NCBI GenBank assembly: GCA_002336805.1
Contig: DDEZ01000012.1
Span: forward strand, 111,054 to 175,053
Direction: 5' to 3'
Source of the DNA: Bacteroidetes bacterium UBA1941
GTDB lineage: Bacteria > Bacteroidota > Bacteroidia > Chitinophagales > LD1
DNA length: 64,000 nt
A model generated the notes under the pieces. The model was not told where the DNA came from, made no database searches, and worked only from the letters and a program-made list of their open reading frames with translations. Below are positions 3,256 through 63,761 of the stretch, one piece after another; the first letter of the stretch is position 1, and every line of letters begins with the position of its first letter. Both the position numbers and the translations under genes were made by a program.

Positions 3256-5205
3256 TTACTTGCGCTTGTACACCACTATGCCGGTGGCCTTGGCAAATTC
3301 CTTTTTCTGCTCAGTGAGTACCTTGTAGAGCTGGATCAGCTCATCTATCTGCTCCGGTGTCTCTGCAGTACGCATGCGCTCCTCCACTTCATAGAGAGTG
3401 GCAAAGTTTTTCATCTGCTTCATCCGCATGGTAGAGGAGACGATGTCCTGTATATAGATGGTCTTCTTGTCAGGTACGATCACCTCATATTTCTCCCACC
3501 AGCCCGGGCTGAGCTGATCCTGCGCAGAGGCCGTGACGAGGTCTATGGCCAGCCGGCTGATCTCAGGATCTGTATGCTGCGTGTAGAAAGTCTCCGGATG
3601 GATACGCCCCGCGTCATACTCTGAGCGGATGTAGTCGTAGGCATACTTGTACTTAGACTCAAAGAGTATGCCCTCCAGTGTGTCAAAGATAAACTGTGTA
3701 GCCGTCTCAGGCTCCCCGCCGTCTACCGGCACCTCCCAGGTGCCATACTCCATCAGTGCGCGCACGATGTCACGCTCTATCGGCTCCGGATTGTGCGTAG
3801 AGGCGAGCATCTGCTCCTGGTGCACCTGCGCATTGGCAGCTATGTCCTGTATCTCTATGTGCGGGGCTACATCTTCTTTGGTCTTGTCCTTGGCGCGGGA
3901 GTTGCGCATCTTATTGACCTCGGCTATCAGTATCTGCTCCGACATCTGCATGCTGTGGGCACACTGCTGTATGTACACAGAGCGCTGTATCATATCCGGT
4001 ATGCGCGAGATAGACTGCACGATGTCACGGATCATGTCAGCCTTCTTGACAGGGTCGTTTTTGGCCTCGGCAGCATACAGGTCCGTCTTGAAAATGATGA
4101 GGTCCTTCTTATTCTCCCTGATAAAATCAGTAAAGGCGGTAGCACCTACTCTGCGCACATAGCTATCCGGGTCCTCCTGGTCCGGCAGGATCACGATCCG
4201 CACATTCATACCCTCCTCCAGTACCATATCGGTACCGCGCAGGGCCGCCTTGATACCCGCTGCGTCTCCATCATAGAGGATGGTCACATTGTGGGTGAAA
4301 CGCTTGATGAGCCGTATCTGGTCTGTAGTGAGGGCCGTGCCGCTGGAGGCTACTACATTATCTATCCCTGCCTGTACGAGTGATATGACATCGGTATAGC
4401 CCTCTACCAGCAGGCACTCGTCCTGCTTGCGTATGTCCCCTTTGGCCTGGTAGATGCCATAGAGGATCTTGCTTTTGACATAGACCTCGCTCTCACCCGT
4501 ATTGACATACTTTGGAGACTTCTCATCCTTCACCATGATACGCCCGCCAAAGGCGATCACCTTGCCCACCAGATTGTGCACCGGGAACATCACCCGATTG
4601 CGGAAGAAGTCGTATTTCGATCCTTCCTTGGGCGAGGTGAGTCCGGCTTTCTTCAGGATATCGAGCTGATAGCCCGCCTTCAGCGCGGTCTCAGTAAAAT
4701 CGGTACCATTCTCTGGGGCAAAACCCAGTTGAAATTTCTCTATGGTCTGCGTGCTAAAGCCACGCTCTTTGAAATAGGCGAGGCCTACAGCCCCTTTCTC
4801 ATTGTGCAGCAGATAGTCGGTGAAAAAGCGCTGCCCAAAGGCATTGGCGATCAGCACACTCTCAGTCAGTGATTGCTTCTCATCTTCCTCCTTCTTCTGC
4901 TCCTCACTGCGGTACTCCTCTACTACCTCTATGTTATACTTTTTGGCCAGGTACTTTAGCGCCTCTACGTAGGTCATCTGCTGGCTCTCCATGAGGAATG
5001 TCACCGAGTTGCCCGCCTTGCCACAGCCAAAGCACTTGTAGATGCCCCTGGATACAGAGACATTGAAGGACGGCGTTTTTTCATTGTGGAAAGGGCAATT
5101 GCCGATCAGGCTGGAGCCGCGCTTCTTGAGGGTCACAAACTCCCCTACGACCTCGTCTATACGGGCCTCCTCCATGATGCGCGCTATGGTAAACTTTGGG
5201 ATCAC
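3256..5205 (-). CDS. dnaG: DNA primase
   Basis: Zinc finger CPFHNEKTPSFNVSVSRGIYKCFGCGKAGN and TOPRIM motifs EGYTDV...DGDAAG. The start is uncertain. GTG at 5205 gives VIPKFTIARIMEEARIDEVV, and the longest ORF reaches 5268. Confidence 0.9.
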   Translation of the reverse strand: MIPKFTIARIMEEARIDEVVGEFVTLKKRGSSLIGNCPFHNEKTPSFNVSVSRGIYKCFGCGKAGNSVTFLMESQQMTYVEALKYLAKKYNIEVVEEYRSEEQKKEEDEKQSLTESVLIANAFGQRFFTDYLLHNEKGAVGLAYFKERGFSTQTIEKFQLGFAPENGTDFTETALKAGYQLDILKKAGLTSPKEGSKYDFFRNRVMFPVHNLVGKVIAFGGRIMVKDEKSPKYVNTGESEVYVKSKILYGIYQAKGDIRKQDECLLVEGYTDVISLVQAGIDNVVASSGTALTTDQIRLIKRFTHNVTILYDGDAAGIKAALRGTDMVLEEGMNVRIVILPDQEDPDSYVRRVGATAFTDFIRENKKDLIIFKTDLYAAEAKNDPVKKADMIRDIVQSISRIPDMIQRSVYIQQCAHSMQMSEQILIAEVNKMRNSRAKDKTKEDVAPHIEIQDIAANAQVHQEQMLASTHNPEPIERDIVRALMEYGTWEVPVDGGEPETATQFIFDTLEGILFESKYKYAYDYIRSEYDAGRIHPETFYTQHTDPEISRLAIDLVTASAQDQLSPGWWEKYEVIVPDKKTIYIQDIVSSTMRMKQMKNFATLYEVEERMRTAETPEQIDELIQLYKVLTEQKKEFAKATGIVVYKRK

Positions 5206-40278: not shown

Positions 40279-40938
40279 ATGAGTATCATTGTGGCCCCCT
40301 CTGTTTTGTCAGCTGATTTTGCCCATCTGGGCCGCGATATAGATATGCTGAATAGCAGCGAGGCGGATTGGATACATATAGATGTGATGGATGGCTCCTT
40401 TGTGCCCAATATCTCTTTTGGCTTCCCCATCCTGCAGGCTATCCGCAAAAGGACGCAGAAATTTTGCGATGTGCACCTGATGATCCTGCAGCCGGAGCGC
40501 TATATCAGGCAGTTTAAAGATGCCGGTGCGGACCACCTGACAGTACACTATGAGGGCAACCTGCACCTGGACTCTGTGATACGCGAGATCAAGGCTCAGG
40601 GCCTGTCTGCCGGGGTGGCCATCAATCCTGCCACACCTGTGAGCGAACTCAAAGAAGTGATCGGCCTGCTGGACCTGGTACTGGTGATGAGTGTCAATCC
40701 GGGCTTTGGGGGTCAGAAATTCATCCCCAATGCGCTGAATAAGGTGCGTGAAGCCCGCGAGCTGATCAAACAATCCGGCTCCAGGGCAAAAATAGAAGTG
40801 GACGGCGGTGTGGGCATGGAGAATGCCAAGAGCCTGATAGAAGCTGGTGCAGATGTGCTGGTGGCCGGCAACGCGGTTTTTGGCGCGAGCGATCCGGTCC
40901 AGACTATCTCTGCTATAAAGAATGCCGCCGCGAAATAA
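40279..40938 (+). CDS. rpe: Ribulose-phosphate 3-epimerase
   Basis: APSVLSADFAHLG, HIDVMDGSFVPNISFG, DVHLM, MSVNPGFGGQKF, EVDGGV, all canonical Rpe motifs. Confidence 0.95.
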   Translation: MSIIVAPSVLSADFAHLGRDIDMLNSSEADWIHIDVMDGSFVPNISFGFPILQAIRKRTQKFCDVHLMILQPERYIRQFKDAGADHLTVHYEGNLHLDSVIREIKAQGLSAGVAINPATPVSELKEVIGLLDLVLVMSVNPGFGGQKFIPNALNKVREARELIKQSGSRAKIEVDGGVGMENAKSLIEAGADVLVAGNAVFGASDPVQTISAIKNAAAK

Positions 40939-57002: not shown

Positions 57003-58169
57003 CTACTCGTATACGAAGCTGCCTTGCGGTGCGGTGAGTACCACTTGGTTTCTGTCTGATGCCTCTACATGGCCTATGACCTGTGCCTCTATACCAAATG
57101 AGCGCGCTGCTTCTATCACCTGTTGCGCATCTTTCTCATCTACATACACCTCGAGGCGTGTGCCACAGTTCAGCACCTTATACATTTCTTTCCAGCCGGT
57201 GCCCGATTCAGACTGCACCAGATCAAAGATCGGAGCTATAGGCAATAAGTTATCTTTTACGATGCGGAGGCCCTCTATGTAGTGCAACACCTTGGTGTGC
57301 GCTCCTCCTGTGCAGTTGATCAGCCCATGTACACGGCCGGGCATCTCATGCAGCAGCCTTTGTATCACCGGGGCGTAGGTACGGGTGGGAGATAGCAGCG
57401 CCTGACCGACGTTGAGCGGTGTCCCCTCCAGTGGGTCTGTGACTTTCTTTGATCCGCTATACACTAGGCTCGCATCTATATTCTGATCGAATGTTTCGGG
57501 ATATTTTTCTGCGTAGTATTTACCCAGCACATCGTGGCGGGCCGAGGTGAGGCCATTGCTGGAGATACCAGAGTTATAAACTTTCTCATAGCTGGCCTGG
57601 CCTGATGATGCCAGTCCTACTATCACATGGCCGGGCTTAATATTTTGAGTCAGTACGAGATCATTGCGCTTCATACGTATGGTCATAGCCGCATCTACGG
57701 TCACTGTTTTCACTATATCGCCGAGGTCGGCAGTCTCTCCACCCATCAGCTGTATCTGCACGCCTGCGTCATTCATAGCGTCTATAAACTCCTGCGTGCC
57801 CGCTATGATCTCCGCTATCACCTCACCGGGTATGTAGTTCTTATTGCGGTTGATCACCGATGTGAGGAGAAATTTATCTGTAGCACCTACGCACAGCAGA
57901 TCATCCAGATTCATCACGATAGCATCCTGCGCTATACCGCGCCATACTGATATATCGCCTGTTTCGCGCCAGTAGAGATAGGCCAGGATAGACTTGGTGC
58001 CTGAGCCATCAGCGCTCATTACATTGCACCACTGCTCATCGCCGCCCATATAGTCAGGGTAGACCTTGCAAAAGGCCTTTGGGTAGAGGCCGTGATAGAG
58101 GTGTTTTACAGCTGCGTGTACATCTTCTTTGCTGGCAGATACGCCCCGCTGCAGGTATTTGTCATCCAT
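57003..58169 (-). CDS. AIR-synthase-related protein (probable phosphoribosylformylglycinamidine cyclo-ligase)
   Basis: 388 aa PurM-fold: SADGSGTKS, DDLLCVGA and GGETADLG. This is the long Bacteroidota-type form. Confidence 0.8.
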   Translation of the reverse strand: MDDKYLQRGVSASKEDVHAAVKHLYHGLYPKAFCKVYPDYMGGDEQWCNVMSADGSGTKSILAYLYWRETGDISVWRGIAQDAIVMNLDDLLCVGATDKFLLTSVINRNKNYIPGEVIAEIIAGTQEFIDAMNDAGVQIQLMGGETADLGDIVKTVTVDAAMTIRMKRNDLVLTQNIKPGHVIVGLASSGQASYEKVYNSGISSNGLTSARHDVLGKYYAEKYPETFDQNIDASLVYSGSKKVTDPLEGTPLNVGQALLSPTRTYAPVIQRLLHEMPGRVHGLINCTGGAHTKVLHYIEGLRIVKDNLLPIAPIFDLVQSESGTGWKEMYKVLNCGTRLEVYVDEKDAQQVIEAARSFGIEAQVIGHVEASDRNQVVLTAPQGSFVYE

Positions 58170-58240: not shown

Positions 58241-59098
58241 ATGCAGGAGCTTCCTCTTTTTGATAAACTCTGGGATTATGCCGACCCGGCAGCCACAGAG
58301 CAGAAATTTCGCCAGATACTGGATACCGAGCCCACGCTCACGGATCTCTCCTATCATCTCCAGCTGCTCACCCAGCTGGCGCGTACTTACAGCCTGCGCC
58401 GGATGTTTGACGAGTCTCAAAACATACTGGATGAAGTGCGCTCTGCTCTGGGCGATGAGCCGACCCTGGAGCAGCTCCGCTACCACCTGGAGCAGGGCCG
58501 TGTGTATAATTCATCCGGAGATAGAACCAGTGCACGTGAGCAATTTGAGAAGGCCCTCGCCATCTCTGACGCTGTAGGTGCAGATTTTCATACCGTAGAT
58601 ACGCTGCACATGCTGGCTATCGTATCGAAACCGGACGAGGCCATAGAGTGGAATAAAAGAGCCATGCTCAAGGCGGAATCCTCTGCCGATGAGCGGGCGC
58701 AAGGCTGGCTCGGATCGTTATACAATAACCTCGGATGGTCATATTTTGGCAAAAAGGACTTCAATAGTGCCCTTGATATCTTTCGCAAGGGTCTCGACTG
58801 GCAGTTGGCAAAGGACCGCCCAAAGCAGGCTAGCATAGCTAAATGGTCCGTAGCTCGCACCATGCGCGCTATGGGTAAGGTGGAGGATGCGCTGGATCTA
58901 CAGCTGGAGCTCGAGCAAGAGAACAAAGAATCTGACGGCTACAACTATGAAGAAATAGGCGAATGCCTGCTGGAGCTCAATCACAAAGAGGAAGCTAAAC
59001 CATACTTTGCCAAGGCATATGAGGCGCTGAAGGATGATCTGTATCTGAAAAACTCTGAACCGGAAAGACTGAAAAGATTAGAAAAGCTATCCCATTAA
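58241..59098 (+). CDS. Tetratricopeptide-repeat protein
   Basis: 285 aa with repeated A/L/Y-patterned 34-residue helical hairpins (e.g. WLGSLYNNLGWSYFGKKDFNSALDIFRKGL). Confidence 0.7.
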   Translation: MQELPLFDKLWDYADPAATEQKFRQILDTEPTLTDLSYHLQLLTQLARTYSLRRMFDESQNILDEVRSALGDEPTLEQLRYHLEQGRVYNSSGDRTSAREQFEKALAISDAVGADFHTVDTLHMLAIVSKPDEAIEWNKRAMLKAESSADERAQGWLGSLYNNLGWSYFGKKDFNSALDIFRKGLDWQLAKDRPKQASIAKWSVARTMRAMGKVEDALDLQLELEQENKESDGYNYEEIGECLLELNHKEEAKPYFAKAYEALKDDLYLKNSEPERLKRLEKLSH

Positions 59099-59629
59099 TT
59101 AAAGGGATAGTAAGAGTTGCTGATAAATACTGTGATTCTCTGCTTCAAACGACACGAAAATTACTTTAGCTATCGTCTCATTATTATTTAGAAAGTCGGA
59201 TACAGTCCTTAGAGCGATAGCAGCGGCTTTATCCTTTGGGAAATGATAGATACCTGTGCTGATACCGGGGAAAGCGATCGTCCTCACTCCATGAGTCACC
59301 GCCAGGCTCAGGCTATTATGATAAGCGTTCTGCAATAATTGTTCTTCGCCTTTGCTACCGCCATTCCAAACCGGGCCTACGGTATGTATCACATACTTTG
59401 CCGGCAGTTTACCTGCGGTCGTGATCACCGCTTCGCCTACGGCGCAGCCGCCTTGCCGGTTCCTGATCATTATGCAGTCATCGAGTATTTCTTTACCACC
59501 AGCGCGATGGATAGCGCCATCTACACCGCCACCTCCGAGCAGGGAGGTATTGGCTGCATTGACTATTGCGTCCACAGCTATTTTAGTAATGTCGCCTTGA
59601 CGCAGTTCTATTTTCTCCTTGGGACTCAT
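59099..59629 (-). CDS. Macro-domain protein (YmdB-like O-acetyl-ADP-ribose deacetylase)
   Basis: [62 protein letters not shown]. Confidence 0.9.
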
Positions 59630-59631
59630 CT

Positions 59632-60630
59632 TTAAACGATCTTCCTACCCACAGCATTCGCTACAGCATCCATGCTCTTATAGAGCGCGCGGAACTGTTC
59701 AAAATTTAACTGCTGGTCTGCATCTGACTTTGCTACCTTCGGATTAGGGTGCGTCTCTATGAGCAGGCCATCTATACCCATAGCGATGCAGGCGCGGGAG
59801 AGGTCGGCTACACCGTAGGCATATCCTATCGCATGGCTCGGGTCGAGTATGACAGGCAGGTTGGTATACTGCTTCAGCCAGGCCACACCGCATAGATCGA
59901 GGGTAAAGCGCGTCTTTGTTTCAAACGTACGGATGCCGCGCTCGCAGAGCATCACATCAGGATTGCCGCTGCTGAGCACAAACTCCGCTGCCTGTACAAA
60001 CTCCTGCAGCGTAGAGCCAAATCCCCGCTTGATCAGCACGGCTTTATTGCTCTTACCGCATTTGCGCAGGATGCCCTGGTCGTACATAGCCTTGGCGCCT
60101 ATCTGCACGATATCACTGTACTCTATCACCTCATCCACATGTGTACTATCACGCACCTCGGTGATGATCTTGAGGCCGTATTTGCTGCGCATCTTATCCA
60201 GCAGCTTCAGCCCCTCCAATCCTAATCCCTGAAAGGTATATGGCGAAGTGCGCGGCTTGTAGGCGCCGGCGCGGAGTACCTTTACACCCAGCTCTACGCA
60301 GAGCTGTGCTGCCTGCTCGATCTGCTCCTCACTCTCTACAGAGCAGGGACCGGTGATCACGGCTGTATGGTCCGTTTTGCCACCCAGCGCTACTGTACCG
60401 AGGTCTATGGTGCGCACATCGGTCATATATTGCTTGCTGGCCAGCTGTATATCAGAGTCAGTAGCGTATGTAGCCTCAGCTTGTGCCTTCAGCTCCGCGT
60501 CTGCTTCCTTCACTTTAGACGAAGTCACCAGCACATATTGCTTTCCATTATGAAAGACAATCGCCTCATAGCGGCGGCCCAGTTCATCAGCTTTCTGCTG
60601 ATCTATATTACTATGGAGATGTATGATCAT
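59632..60630 (-). CDS. 3-deoxy-7-phosphoheptulonate (DAHP) synthase, type I-beta with N-terminal regulatory domain
   Basis: [49 protein letters not shown]. An N-terminal extension of about 90 aa precedes the barrel. Confidence 0.9.
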
Positions 60631-60654
60631 TTGATTTGTATTTAGAAGCTGTCT

Positions 60655-61653
60655 CTAGCCTCTCGTCAGGTTATTGAGTAGTACTGCGCCCAGCAGCCTG
60701 CCGGTGCTATCTACGACCGGCAAAAATAGTATAATGAAATTGAGTTCATTTATCACAGAGAGCATCTGCCCCAGATCGGCATCTCCACTGATCCGCACGG
60801 GATCAGTATTGATCATCTCCCGCACGTCCACGCTGACCAGGTTGTCCAGCTGGCGTATCAGGCCACGGCGCAGGTCCGCATTGCTGATCACTCCCTTCAG
60901 TTTGCCTTCAGCGTCTTGTATCAGGACGAAGCCTTGCCTGTGGTCCTCTATAGTATGCAGGGCCGTCTCAAAGCGCAGGTCCTTTTCATTCAGCACCGGC
61001 AGGTAGCAGGCAGGCGTCATGAAATCCTTCACCTGATAGCTGCCACCTATAGGATCCTTGTACAGGCTGAGCATGCCTGAGCCGATACTGTAGTGATTCA
61101 TAATAAAGGAGCCGGACACGATAGAGTCTACTCCCAGCAGCCTGAGTATATACGCCACTTCATCATTCACGCCACCGTCTACCTGTATCTTGAGCTTGGG
61201 ATAGCGCTGGCGCACCTCTATGATCCGGCGGAAATTATCCTTGCGGAAACTACCGCCACTCACACCCGGCGTGGTACACATGAGCATCACATAGTCATAG
61301 CCTACGGCCTGGTCCAGTACTTTGATATCTGTTTCTGACTGCAGGGCTATGCCAAACTTAGTACCCGGTATCTTCGGTGCAGTGGGTAGGGTTCCCATAT
61401 CCTCATACTGCAGCGATACATTTTCTACTCTGAGGTCACGTATCAGCGCTTCGTACTTCAGCGGGTCTTTGGCTATGATATGCAGGTCCAGCGGCGTAGT
61501 GGTCAGCGATCTGATCTGTTGGATATCATCAAACACTTCCGGCCTGTCTGCACAGTCTATATGCAGCATATCTACTCCATGACTACTGAGCTGGCTTACG
61601 ATGTCGCTCAGTGGTTTTTCCCGCTGGGAATAAATGGAGGCAGATATTTTCAC
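60655..61653 (-). CDS. Ribulose-phosphate-3-epimerase-like barrel fused to a C-terminal CBS pair
   Basis: The N-terminal ~215 aa are collinear with the window's own Rpe (KISASIYS / HIDCAD / DLHII / LMCTTPGVSGGSF / QVDGGV / SGSFI). The C-terminus has two CBS repeats. I prefer the GTG start at 61653, since the longer ORF to 61773 would overlap the divergent gene. Confidence 0.75.
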   Translation of the reverse strand: MKISASIYSQREKPLSDIVSQLSSHGVDMLHIDCADRPEVFDDIQQIRSLTTTPLDLHIIAKDPLKYEALIRDLRVENVSLQYEDMGTLPTAPKIPGTKFGIALQSETDIKVLDQAVGYDYVMLMCTTPGVSGGSFRKDNFRRIIEVRQRYPKLKIQVDGGVNDEVAYILRLLGVDSIVSGSFIMNHYSIGSGMLSLYKDPIGGSYQVKDFMTPACYLPVLNEKDLRFETALHTIEDHRQGFVLIQDAEGKLKGVISNADLRRGLIRQLDNLVSVDVREMINTDPVRISGDADLGQMLSVINELNFIILFLPVVDSTGRLLGAVLLNNLTRG

Positions 61654-61766
61654 AGATGCAAATTGAAAGTTTTTGGGTGGAAATACAAATGGCTGTGCAG
61701 CTACTGTACCTATACATGAGATAATTGCCCCGCAGATGGCTATTTTCACAACTATTAATACTCCAT

Positions 61767-63761
61767 ATGTCATCTCAGCACCAGCATACCAACGCCCTCA
61801 TACACGAGACCAGTCCCTATTTGCTCCAGCACGCCCACAACCCTGTGCACTGGATGCCCTGGGGCAATACAGCCTGGGATAAAGCCAAGGCGGAAGACAA
61901 ACTGGTGGTGGTCAGTATCGGCTACTCGGCCTGCCACTGGTGCCATGTGATGGAGCATGAGAGCTTCGAGGACAAGGTAGTGGCGGATATCATGAATGAC
62001 CACTTCGTCAGTATCAAGGTAGACCGCGAGGAGCGCCCCGATGTAGACCAGATATACATGGATGCCGTGCAGATCATCACCGGCCATGGCGGCTGGCCGC
62101 TCAATGCGATCTGCCTGCCTGATGGGAGGCCGATCTACGCGGGCACCTACTTTCAGCTCGAGCAGTGGAAGCAGGTGCTGCTCTACCTGACAGATTACTT
62201 TCACAAGGACCGCGATGATGCGATGGAGCGGGCGGCAGAAATCGTACGCGGCATCAAAGTACTGGATACCATCACGCCGGCGGCAGATGCAGCTTTCGAT
62301 CCTGCAGATAGAGCAGCCATGTTTCAGCGCATAAATCAGGCCTGGGACTATGAGCTGGGTGGCCGCCGAGGTGCGCCTAAGTTTCCTATGCCGGTCACGA
62401 TGCAGTACCTGCTGCAAAACTATTTTTACACTAAAAATGAGAAGGCGCTACAAGCCGTGACCGTCACGCTAGACCAAATGCTGGCAGGAGGTATTTATGA
62501 TCAGATTGGTGGTGGCTTTGCGCGCTACTCAGTGGATGACACGTGGACCATCCCGCACTTTGAGAAGATGCTGTACGACAATGGGCAGCTAGTCTCGCTC
62601 TACTCCTCCGCATTTCAGATCACCGAGAATCCATCTTATCGCGCGGTGGTGTATGATACGGTCGCCTTTATCCAGCGTGAGATGACGGCACCCAGCGGCG
62701 GCTTCTATTCTGCACTGGATGCGGACTCAGAGGGCGTAGAAGGTAAGTTTTACGTATGGACCAATGAAGAGCTCAAAACTATATTAGGTCAGGACTTTGA
62801 TGACTTTGCGAAATACTACGACATCACTCCGGGTGGCAATTTCGAGCACGGCTATATCAATCTGCGCCGGCTGTCACTAAGTATACCTGACGAGTCACAA
62901 GAAGCCAAGGTCAGATCGTGGGCTATAAAGCTCATGGCTGTAAGAAATGAGCGCATCAGGCCGGGCCTGGATGATAAAATACTCACCTCGTGGAATGCCC
63001 TGATAATAAAAGGCCTGCTGGACGCTTACAATGCTTTTGGCGATAAAAGTTTTCTGGAGCTGGCTTTGTCCCATGCCGCTTTTATCAAAAAGTACTGTAT
63101 CAAATCGGATCACAGCCTCTACCGCAGTCACAAAGAAGGTCGCTCTACCATCAATGGTTTCCTCGATGATTATTCATTTACCATTGAAGCGTTCATAGCG
63201 CTGTATCAGGCCACTTTTGATGAGCAATGGCTTACCACGGCCAAAGATCTGGCCGATCACGCCATCCAGCATTTTTACTCCTCCGAGAAAGGTATTTTCT
63301 TTTACACCTCTATCACAGACGACCCGCTCATAGCGCGCAAGACCGAGACTACGGACAACGTGATCCCATCGTCAAACTCCAGCATGGCCAAAGCACTCTA
63401 TCTGCTGGGCCATCTGATGGATCAGGATAGCTACCTGCGCATAGCCCGCCAGCAAACGCTGAACCTGAAAGAGAATGCGCTGAAGCATACAGCCTTCTAT
63501 GCCAACTGGGCGATGATGACTGATGCCTTCATCCATGAGCCATATGAAATAGCTATCTGTGGCAGTGATGCACCAGATCTGCGTAAAGAACTCGCGAAGG
63601 AATATCGCCCCGATACGATACTACTGGGCAGTACAGCAGTAAGCTCTCTACCGCTGCTACAAGGCAAAACTCATGCAAACGATACATGGATATATGTATG
63701 CAGAAACAAGACGTGCCAGCTACCTGTCAGGACAGTGCAGGAGGCTAAAAAGCAAATGTAG
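61767..63761 (+). CDS. Thioredoxin-domain protein (DUF255/YyaL-like, with alpha/alpha-toroid C-terminal domain)
   Basis: [61 protein letters not shown]. Confidence 0.88.

Follow-up and report, generated by a model that had tools for sequence, protein, structure and literature searches.

The inner core of the outer-membrane lipopolysaccharide (LPS) contains an essential sugar acid, 3-deoxy-D-manno-octulosonate (Kdo), whose synthesis begins with two dedicated enzymes—the arabinose-5-phosphate isomerase KdsD and the Kdo-8-phosphate synthase KdsA. To our knowledge, this route is treated as near-universal and essential in LPS-making bacteria, and it is an antibiotic target. Here we examine a locus in a 64,000-nucleotide stretch of the genome of Bacteroidetes bacterium UBA1941 (contig DDEZ01000012.1, positions 111,054 to 175,053, hereafter the window; positions below are those of the window unless a contig or locus is named). 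In this locus, a gene for an Rpe-like barrel fused to a pair of CBS domains (Rpe-CBS) is followed by a gene for an aldolase of the type I-beta 3-deoxy-D-arabino-heptulosonate-7-phosphate synthase (DAHPS)/KdsA family (Table 1). Judging from sequence comparisons across related genomes, Rpe-CBS and the aldolase very probably fill the role of KdsD and KdsA; that they do so as a non-orthologous replacement with Kdo-8-phosphate as the product is the version we favor, with somewhat less confidence.

Distribution of the gene pair, KdsA and KdsD

The host genome, a 95% complete assembly, has only two genes matching PF00793: that of the aldolase paired with Rpe-CBS and one for a DAHPS-chorismate-mutase fusion typical of Bacteroidota. 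No KdsA above the cut-off and no SIS-type arabinose-5-phosphate isomerase (KdsD) were found in this genome, and KdsB, the Kdo transferase WaaA and a KdsC-type phosphatase are all present. Two of these genes have peculiarities of their own. The conserved N-terminus KILGVIPARYASTRLPGK encoded at the host kdsB (G000:C5:57986-58696; locus L010:1423-2232, minus strand) lies upstream of the first in-frame ATG, GTG or TTG, reflecting either an unusual start codon or an assembly error. The sole KdsC-type phosphatase scores nearly as high on the KDN-9-P phosphatase model, and its gene lies ~6 kb from a second CTP_transf_3 gene (G000:C2:143985-144443 and C2:150324-150935)—an arrangement that may belong to a second ulosonic-acid pathway.

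Among 40 relatives taken together with the host genome, Rpe-CBS occurred in 30, KdsA in 10, both in none and neither in one; KdsD accompanied KdsA in 8 of its 10 genomes and was absent from all 30 Rpe-CBS carriers. An even, order-wide sample of 151 genomes gave the same picture (Rpe-CBS 55, KdsA 91, both 0, neither 5), with a KdsD-type isomerase in 79 genomes, only one of which is a carrier (G526); the isomerase gene in question lies on contig C308 of an 86%-complete metagenome-assembled genome (MAG) of 320 contigs. Both states—the pair or KdsA—are represented inside the Chitinophagales families f1, f10, f73 and f76 and inside a single genus (g2); family f27 likewise has members of each kind. 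Moreover, in the Cyclobacteriaceae, which belong to another order (Cytophagales), three 100%-complete carriers have neither KdsA nor KdsD, and two genomes without the pair have both. A phylum-wide sample of 400 mostly isolate genomes contained three carriers only and was used as a targeted test, not for statistics. When the two orders are combined, 71 pair carriers and 93 KdsA genomes show an overlap of 0/164, a count that is no formal statistic, as the sampled genomes are kin and not independent of one another; the telling part of the phyletic pattern is the repeated switching within families. Two further families of the order-wide sample depart from the usual KdsA/KdsD arrangement in their own ways: all 11 genomes of family f4 have KdsA and no KpsF-family isomerase at E<=1e-40, and family f79 has a SIS-only isomerase, lacking the CBS pair, whose gene directly adjoins kdsA in most members.

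The pair could conceivably make a separate surface-glycan sugar acid, with KdsA and KdsD being absent for some other reason, for example because a third, unrecognised Kdo route exists or the LPS is Kdo-free. Distant family members, which occur in loci of the capsule or O-antigen type and may be found alongside KdsA, would suit such a role. However, this explanation needs the lack of overlap to be a coincidence repeated across at least five mixed families, and the retention of KdsB, KdsC and WaaA implies that a CMP-Kdo-type donor is still made (CMP, cytidine monophosphate); in one relative, kdsB even belongs to the same gene string as the pair. We therefore regard a separate glycan pathway as very improbable, and a role for the pair in place of KdsD and KdsA as the better account of these genomes.

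The Rpe-CBS protein and its aldolase partner

In each of the 29 relatives examined and in all three Cyclobacteriaceae carriers (32 loci), Rpe-CBS lies directly upstream of the aldolase gene and shares its strand. The spacer measures ~3-130 nt in the relatives, and in the closed genome of a cultured Cyclobacteriaceae carrier (G253) it gives way to a 4-nt overlap; there, the genes for Rpe-CBS, the aldolase and a HAD phosphatase all overlap, the last of these overlapping the aldolase stop. In one relative (G037; C175:8748-11585), kdsB lies immediately upstream, and kdsB, Rpe-CBS and the aldolase gene form one same-strand string. The linkage extends to the genomic contexts of six distant family members with 24-29% identity: a DAHP_synth_1 gene adjoins five of them, the contig of the sixth ending at that point, and the surroundings include a CTP_transf_3 (KdsB-like) gene in three of the six and a HAD phosphatase in at least two, besides genes for Wzx/Wzy and glycosyltransferases or for an ABC transporter resembling MsbA. 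An RraA-like gene also recurs beside three of these cassettes (L113, L117 and L118), one of which (L117) additionally has a TylF-type methyltransferase, and such neighbors suggest that those lineages modify the sugar acid further.

The barrel of Rpe-CBS matches PF00834 (E = 3e-22; 79.4 bits against a cut-off of 21.1 bits) over profile positions 1-197 of 198 and residues 1-184, and it does not pass the rpe equivalog model TIGR01163 (73.4 bits against 212.6). It shares this Pfam family with the canonical rpe, these being the only two PF00834 genes in the whole genome, and the two products are collinear (BLASTP, 27% identity over 197 residues, E = 2e-18). An initial annotation of this DNA, made from the letters alone, had proposed such collinearity from a handful of matching blocks, had placed the protein in the ribulose-phosphate-binding barrel family as a divergent second member and had pointed to metal ligands to be inspected (His, Asp, His, Asp); the alignment, which contains those blocks, and the profile score bear the family assignment out. 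An alignment of 18 sequences, the true Rpe among them, shows no variation in the tetrad H31, D33, H58 and D159 (metal binding and acid-base catalysis) or in the loop glycines, namely G130/G133 (PGxSGG), G160/G161 (DGG) and G181 (SGS). In a wider set of 60 family members, reaching down to ~23% identity, H58 and G160 are invariant and the rest of the tetrad and most of the other positions are kept in >=90%. The phosphate loops (PGVSGG, DGG and SGS) are likewise retained in the barrel.

Departures from Rpe concern the substrate cleft. The beta2 loop that follows HxD (MDGxFVPNxxFG in Rpe) is six residues shorter in Rpe-CBS, in agreement with the loss of the G.FVPN..FG loop already remarked upon; this element, known as loop B, forms one wall of the Rpe substrate cleft, and the roles of the Rpe methionines are described in the same source (10.1101/2022.09.29.510120). 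Of the three methionines, two have given way to other residues (HIDCA and DLHII); the third, which belongs to the LM preceding the PG loop, persists and hardly varies across the family—the Met cushion that had been reported as missing is thus lost in two parts out of three. A structure of Rpe-CBS predicted with AlphaFold2 on the family alignment is confident (predicted local distance difference test score, pLDDT, of 95.3), and the top Foldseek matches of the modelled barrel are the Rpe structures 4nu7, 3qc3 and 3ovq. On the strength of its residues, the barrel looks catalytically competent. A purely regulatory, non-catalytic protein is ruled out by the conservation of tetrad and phosphate loops down to ~23% identity. 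The fusion is widespread, with 692 homology matches in one search and 84 clusters at 50% identity and E<=1e-30 in another; the suspicion that such a fusion might be common and already characterised was right in its first half, and our search of the available full-text literature, which extended to alternative Kdo routes, threose-4-phosphate and heptulosonate sugars, CMP-Kdo binding by CBS domains and Rpe active sites, found no published description of either the Rpe-CBS fusion or the Rpe-CBS/aldolase pair.

The C-terminal repeats had been recognised correctly as a CBS pair, with two stretches matching PF00571 (E = 3e-10). The best CBS-containing NCBIfam match of Rpe-CBS is the KpsF/GutQ model TIGR00393 (E = 1.3e-7), aligned over profile positions 156-267, which are its CBS part only; no Pfam match to a SIS catalytic domain was found in Rpe-CBS. 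Among sequences in the PDB, an arabinose-5-phosphate isomerase CBS pair (4o9k) ranks first (E = 3.3e-5, with the whole pair covered), and the same entry is the best CBS structural match of the modelled protein in Foldseek, with 3k2v also among the top ones. By sequence and by model, KdsD-type arabinose-5-phosphate isomerases have the CBS pair most similar to that of Rpe-CBS. We take the 4o9k structure to be a complex with CMP-Kdo.

The aldolase combines DAHPS hallmarks with motifs of its own. It matches PF00793 (E = 1.5e-68), passes the DAHPS subfamily model NF006421 (368 bits against a cut-off of 335) and does not pass the KdsA model TIGR01362 (126 bits against 314). The DAHPS features GPCSVES, DPSH, ETH, SD and KPRTS—metal ligands and the KPRT motif—are all present. 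Alongside them, it displays the motifs GAKAMY, TRFTLD, GYAYGV and SDA.QQ, representing a class that is absent from unlinked DAHPS and from KdsA and that we refer to as linked (L) type. Relative to the unlinked, ordinary I-beta DAHPS of related genomes, all Rpe-CBS-partnered aldolases have undergone the same replacements: GARN.QNF gives way to GAKAM(Y/F), RNT to RF(T/S), Gx R(D/E) to G(Y/L)x(Y/F)G and SDG to (S/C)D(A/K). All of them keep the metal ligands and KPRT(S/N), and the KANRS motif and long beta7-alpha7 loop of KdsA are absent from every one. In the tree, those linked aldolases that carry the N-terminal ferredoxin-like domain cluster together (SH-like approximate likelihood-ratio test, SH-aLRT, 82). 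Identity to the window aldolase is 57-99% for linked copies across two orders and 38-46% for unlinked paralogues of the same genomes. In one fragmentary MAG (L025, G014:C146), the aldolase at 3944-4911 appears split into two overlapping frames, perhaps by a frameshift or a sequencing error. A plain DAHPS that happens to adjoin Rpe-CBS by chance is ruled out by the motif class together with the linkage across very distant members.

These results bear directly on the function first proposed for the locus, in which the Rpe-like enzyme would adjust the supply of erythrose 4-phosphate or pentose phosphates for a true DAHP synthase of the shikimate pathway, the CBS pair serving as an energy or adenosyl sensor. 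An aldolase with KPRTS that exceeds the NCBI DAHPS subfamily cut-off and has an N-terminal ferredoxin-like domain, as in feedback-regulated I-beta DAHPS, would be expected on that basis, and two relatives (G011 and G016) retain the aldolase without Rpe-CBS. However, a link to the shikimate pathway offers no reason for the perfect mutual exclusion with KdsA and KdsD, the host genome has its separate DAHPS-chorismate-mutase fusion, and the Cyclobacteriaceae carriers have, in addition, an unlinked I-beta DAHPS of the ordinary kind. Distant cassettes stand beside CMP-transferase, HAD phosphatase and Wzx/Wzy genes and never beside aro genes, and the aldolase belongs to a motif class of its own, the DAHPS active-site motifs GARN and RNT being altered in the partnered enzymes. 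The shikimate proposal leaves all of the phyletic and context data unexplained, and we hold it to be most improbable; the fallback offered with it—that the enzyme acts on a different sugar phosphate—was the better half of that annotation.

Candidate reactions and product

For the substrates, product and CBS ligand of the module we infer the following scheme, in keeping with a replacement of KdsD and KdsA. Using the conserved metal site and a pair of opposed aspartates, the barrel would perform Rpe-type enediolate chemistry on a sugar of the pentose-phosphate pathway, most likely yielding D-arabinose 5-phosphate through 2-epimerisation of ribose 5-phosphate or isomerisation of ribulose 5-phosphate. 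The L-type aldolase would then combine this aldose phosphate with phosphoenolpyruvate (PEP) to give Kdo-8-phosphate, and the ordinary KdsC, KdsB and WaaA enzymes would dephosphorylate, CMP-activate and transfer the sugar. The KdsD-like CBS pair might throttle the first step by sensing a ligand of nucleotide type, which could be the end product.

A different sugar may, alternatively, be made by the same module for the same slot in LPS synthesis. Rpe-CBS would then be an erythrose-4-phosphate 2-epimerase producing D-threose 4-phosphate, and the aldolase would use it with PEP to form 3-deoxy-D-lyxo-heptulosonate 7-phosphate, a seven-carbon homologue of Kdo-8-phosphate with Kdo-like stereochemistry that KdsC, KdsB and WaaA would accept. 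The epimerisation of erythrose 4-phosphate is the exact analogue of the conversion of ribulose 5-phosphate to xylulose 5-phosphate minus C1, and DAHP synthases reportedly accept D-threose 4-phosphate in vitro (work from the Parker laboratory). We consider this alternative possible but unlikely. It also seems doubtful, in its broader form, that Bacteroidota carriers build their LPS inner core on 3-deoxy-D-lyxo-heptulosonate instead of Kdo, with the same pair supplying related heptulosonic or heptulosaric sugars in other phyla.

Several observations weigh against Kdo-8-phosphate as the product, and most of them would suit the seven-carbon sugar. The aldolase keeps the DAHPS-type KPRTS and a short beta7-alpha7 loop, as expected of a tetrose-phosphate enzyme and as found in every partnered aldolase, the most distant included; besides passing the NCBI DAHPS subfamily cut-off, it has a pocket that looks, from its residues, sized for a tetrose phosphate. 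The sequence positions of the phosphate loops and metal ligands in the barrel correspond to those in Rpe, and because of this placement the reactive carbon should lie two carbons from the phosphate, like C2 of a tetrose 4-phosphate. Such a geometry would favor erythrose 4-phosphate over chemistry at C1/C2 of a pentose 5-phosphate.

Orphan copies of the aldolase add to these points. In G011 and G016, an intact L-type aldolase is kept without Rpe-CBS, alongside KdsA/KdsD, in a dapF-aldolase-valS string (G011 L043:2808-4600; G016 L044:2517-4306). These orphans are nested inside the linked clade of the tree; a comparison made for signs of neofunctionalisation showed 129 of 136 near-invariant sites to be common to linked and orphan enzymes, and no remnant of Rpe-CBS was found upstream of the aldolase in either genome. 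The aldolase would accordingly have some use alone, perhaps as a DAHPS, and its persistence would be easy to explain if erythrose 4-phosphate were also accepted. Finally, KdsA is also encoded in G541, a genome whose cassette is very distant, and for this reason the exclusivity is a property of the Bacteroidota subfamily and not of the whole family; such a cassette, coexisting with KdsA and travelling with its own CMP-transferase in polysaccharide loci, resembles pathways for distinct sugars.

On the other side stand the downstream enzymes and the history of the pair. KdsB and WaaA are retained in both states, and the KdsB tree mixes pair and KdsA genomes; a single alignment column is weakly linked to state, with mostly Glu in carriers and mostly Asp or Ser in KdsA genomes. 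Neither the tree nor the alignment columns gave a signal of a state-specific KdsB change, which would point to an altered sugar. Since KdsB and WaaA are kept in both states and KdsB is not split by state, these data fit an unchanged product, although the lean is mild and the KdsB comparison does not otherwise separate an eight-carbon from a seven-carbon sugar. The repeated switches to and from the KdsA/KdsD pair, within families and within a genus, with KdsB and WaaA retained and free of state-specific change, are easier to accommodate if the product is identical, and no Bacteroidota LPS containing the seven-carbon sugar was found in the literature search. Taken together, the repeated and apparently easy switches between systems and the lack of a state-specific KdsB change fit Kdo itself as the end product.

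Locus layout and relation to known systems

The three minus-strand genes of the locus run head to tail in the order Rpe-CBS, aldolase and macro-domain gene, and their open reading frames and the 24-nt and 2-nt gaps between them are exactly those first described. The Rpe-CBS frame remains open as far as an ATG at 61773; the GTG at 61653 is the likely start, because homologues are 332-337 aa long and begin with MKISASIYS.

Table 1. Features of the Rpe-CBS/aldolase locus and the comparator rpe gene (window positions)
Feature	Position	Strand	Description
Rpe-CBS gene	60655..61653	-	332 aa, GTG start; candidate aldose-phosphate-forming enzyme, KdsD analogue
Rpe-like (beta/alpha)8 barrel	61054..61653	-	Residues ~1-200; PF00834 match
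CBS pair, KdsD-type	60658..61035	-	Residues ~207-332; PF00571, two stretches; presumed ligand sensor
Spacer between Rpe-CBS and aldolase genes	60631..60654	-	24 nt
Aldolase gene, DAHPS I-beta/KdsA family, linked (L) type	59632..60630	-	332 aa; PF00793, NF006421
Aldolase domains			N-terminal ferredoxin-like domain (~1-75) and barrel; candidate 3-deoxy-ulosonate-phosphate synthase, KdsA analogue
Macro-domain gene	59099..59629	-	YmdB-like O-acetyl-ADP-ribose deacetylase; PF01661, NF001664; outside conserved module
Canonical rpe	40279..40938	+	Comparator outside the module; TIGR01163, 281 bits against a 212.6-bit cut-off

The macro-domain assignment is supported by PF01661 (E = 3e-47, 160 bits) and NF001664 (230 bits against a cut-off of 200), both of which are passed. 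The gene follows the aldolase in the locus of only 1 of the 29 relatives (G006)—2 of 30 loci when the window is included—and since it occupies this place only in these two genomes, it looks like a recent insertion and not a part of the unit. As a conserved unit, the apparent operon of three genes is therefore upheld for the first two, by their adjacency in relatives, in another order and in distant contexts, and not for the third. The macro-domain gene is wedged between the aldolase gene and a convergent TPR gene (58241-59098, plus strand). A PurM-like gene of the AIR-synthase family lies farther along (57003-58169, minus strand; 388 aa), with a score under the purM cut-off, and such a PurM-like gene is the commonest downstream neighbor of the Rpe-CBS/aldolase pair, occurring in 17 genomes.

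If the proposed replacement is correct, it bears on how Kdo synthesis is read from genomes. More than one third of a large order (55 of 151 sampled genomes), together with some Cyclobacteriaceae, is missing both KdsD and KdsA and has the pair instead. Annotation pipelines label the aldolase as a shikimate enzyme and its partner as a 'CBS domain protein' or 'Rpe', and in metabolic reconstructions of carriers the Kdo pathway would wrongly look broken and one DAHP synthase too many would be counted. The replacement would also give the Rpe fold a new reaction and the DAHPS/KdsA family a third class of specificity, and the pair offers a testable route to the question of whether LPS can be built with a homologue in place of Kdo.

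Among described systems, the closest in logic is KdsD/KpsF/GutQ followed by KdsA, where the same two steps are taken by a sugar-phosphate converter with a C-terminal CBS pair and then by a PEP-dependent aldolase of the DAHPS/KdsA family. In sequence and fold, the closest relative of the CBS pair in Rpe-CBS is that of KdsD, and KdsD with KdsA occupies the same phyletic slot as the pair—one or the other in the 164 Bacteroidota genomes—with the same downstream enzymes retained. The catalytic parts differ: KdsD has a SIS domain, whereas Rpe-CBS has an Rpe-type, metal-dependent (beta/alpha)8 barrel, and KdsA has KANRS and a long beta7-alpha7 loop in contrast to the KPRTS, short loop and N-terminal ferredoxin-like domain of the L-type aldolase. 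Additionally, kdsD and kdsA are often apart, whereas the Rpe-CBS and aldolase genes are always adjacent.

Rpe itself (human 3ovq/3ovr and Streptococcus pyogenes 2fli) has the same fold as the Rpe-CBS barrel, with a Foldseek template modelling (TM) score of ~0.75 on the target, and the tetrad, the phosphate-binding loops and one of three Met are common to both proteins. Rpe-CBS nevertheless stands apart from Rpe through its shortened loop B, the loss of two Met, the fused CBS pair, the aldolase partner and the presence of a normal rpe in the same genome. A similar balance applies to the aldolase and the type I-beta DAHP synthases (Thermotoga maritima type; NF006421/TIGR01361), which agree in domain layout, in the positions of the Cys/His/Glu/Asp metal ligands and in KPRTS, but the partnered aldolases group separately from the unlinked DAHPS that the same genomes encode and, unlike DAHPS, the L-type aldolase has a phyletic pattern that tracks LPS genes and not aro genes.

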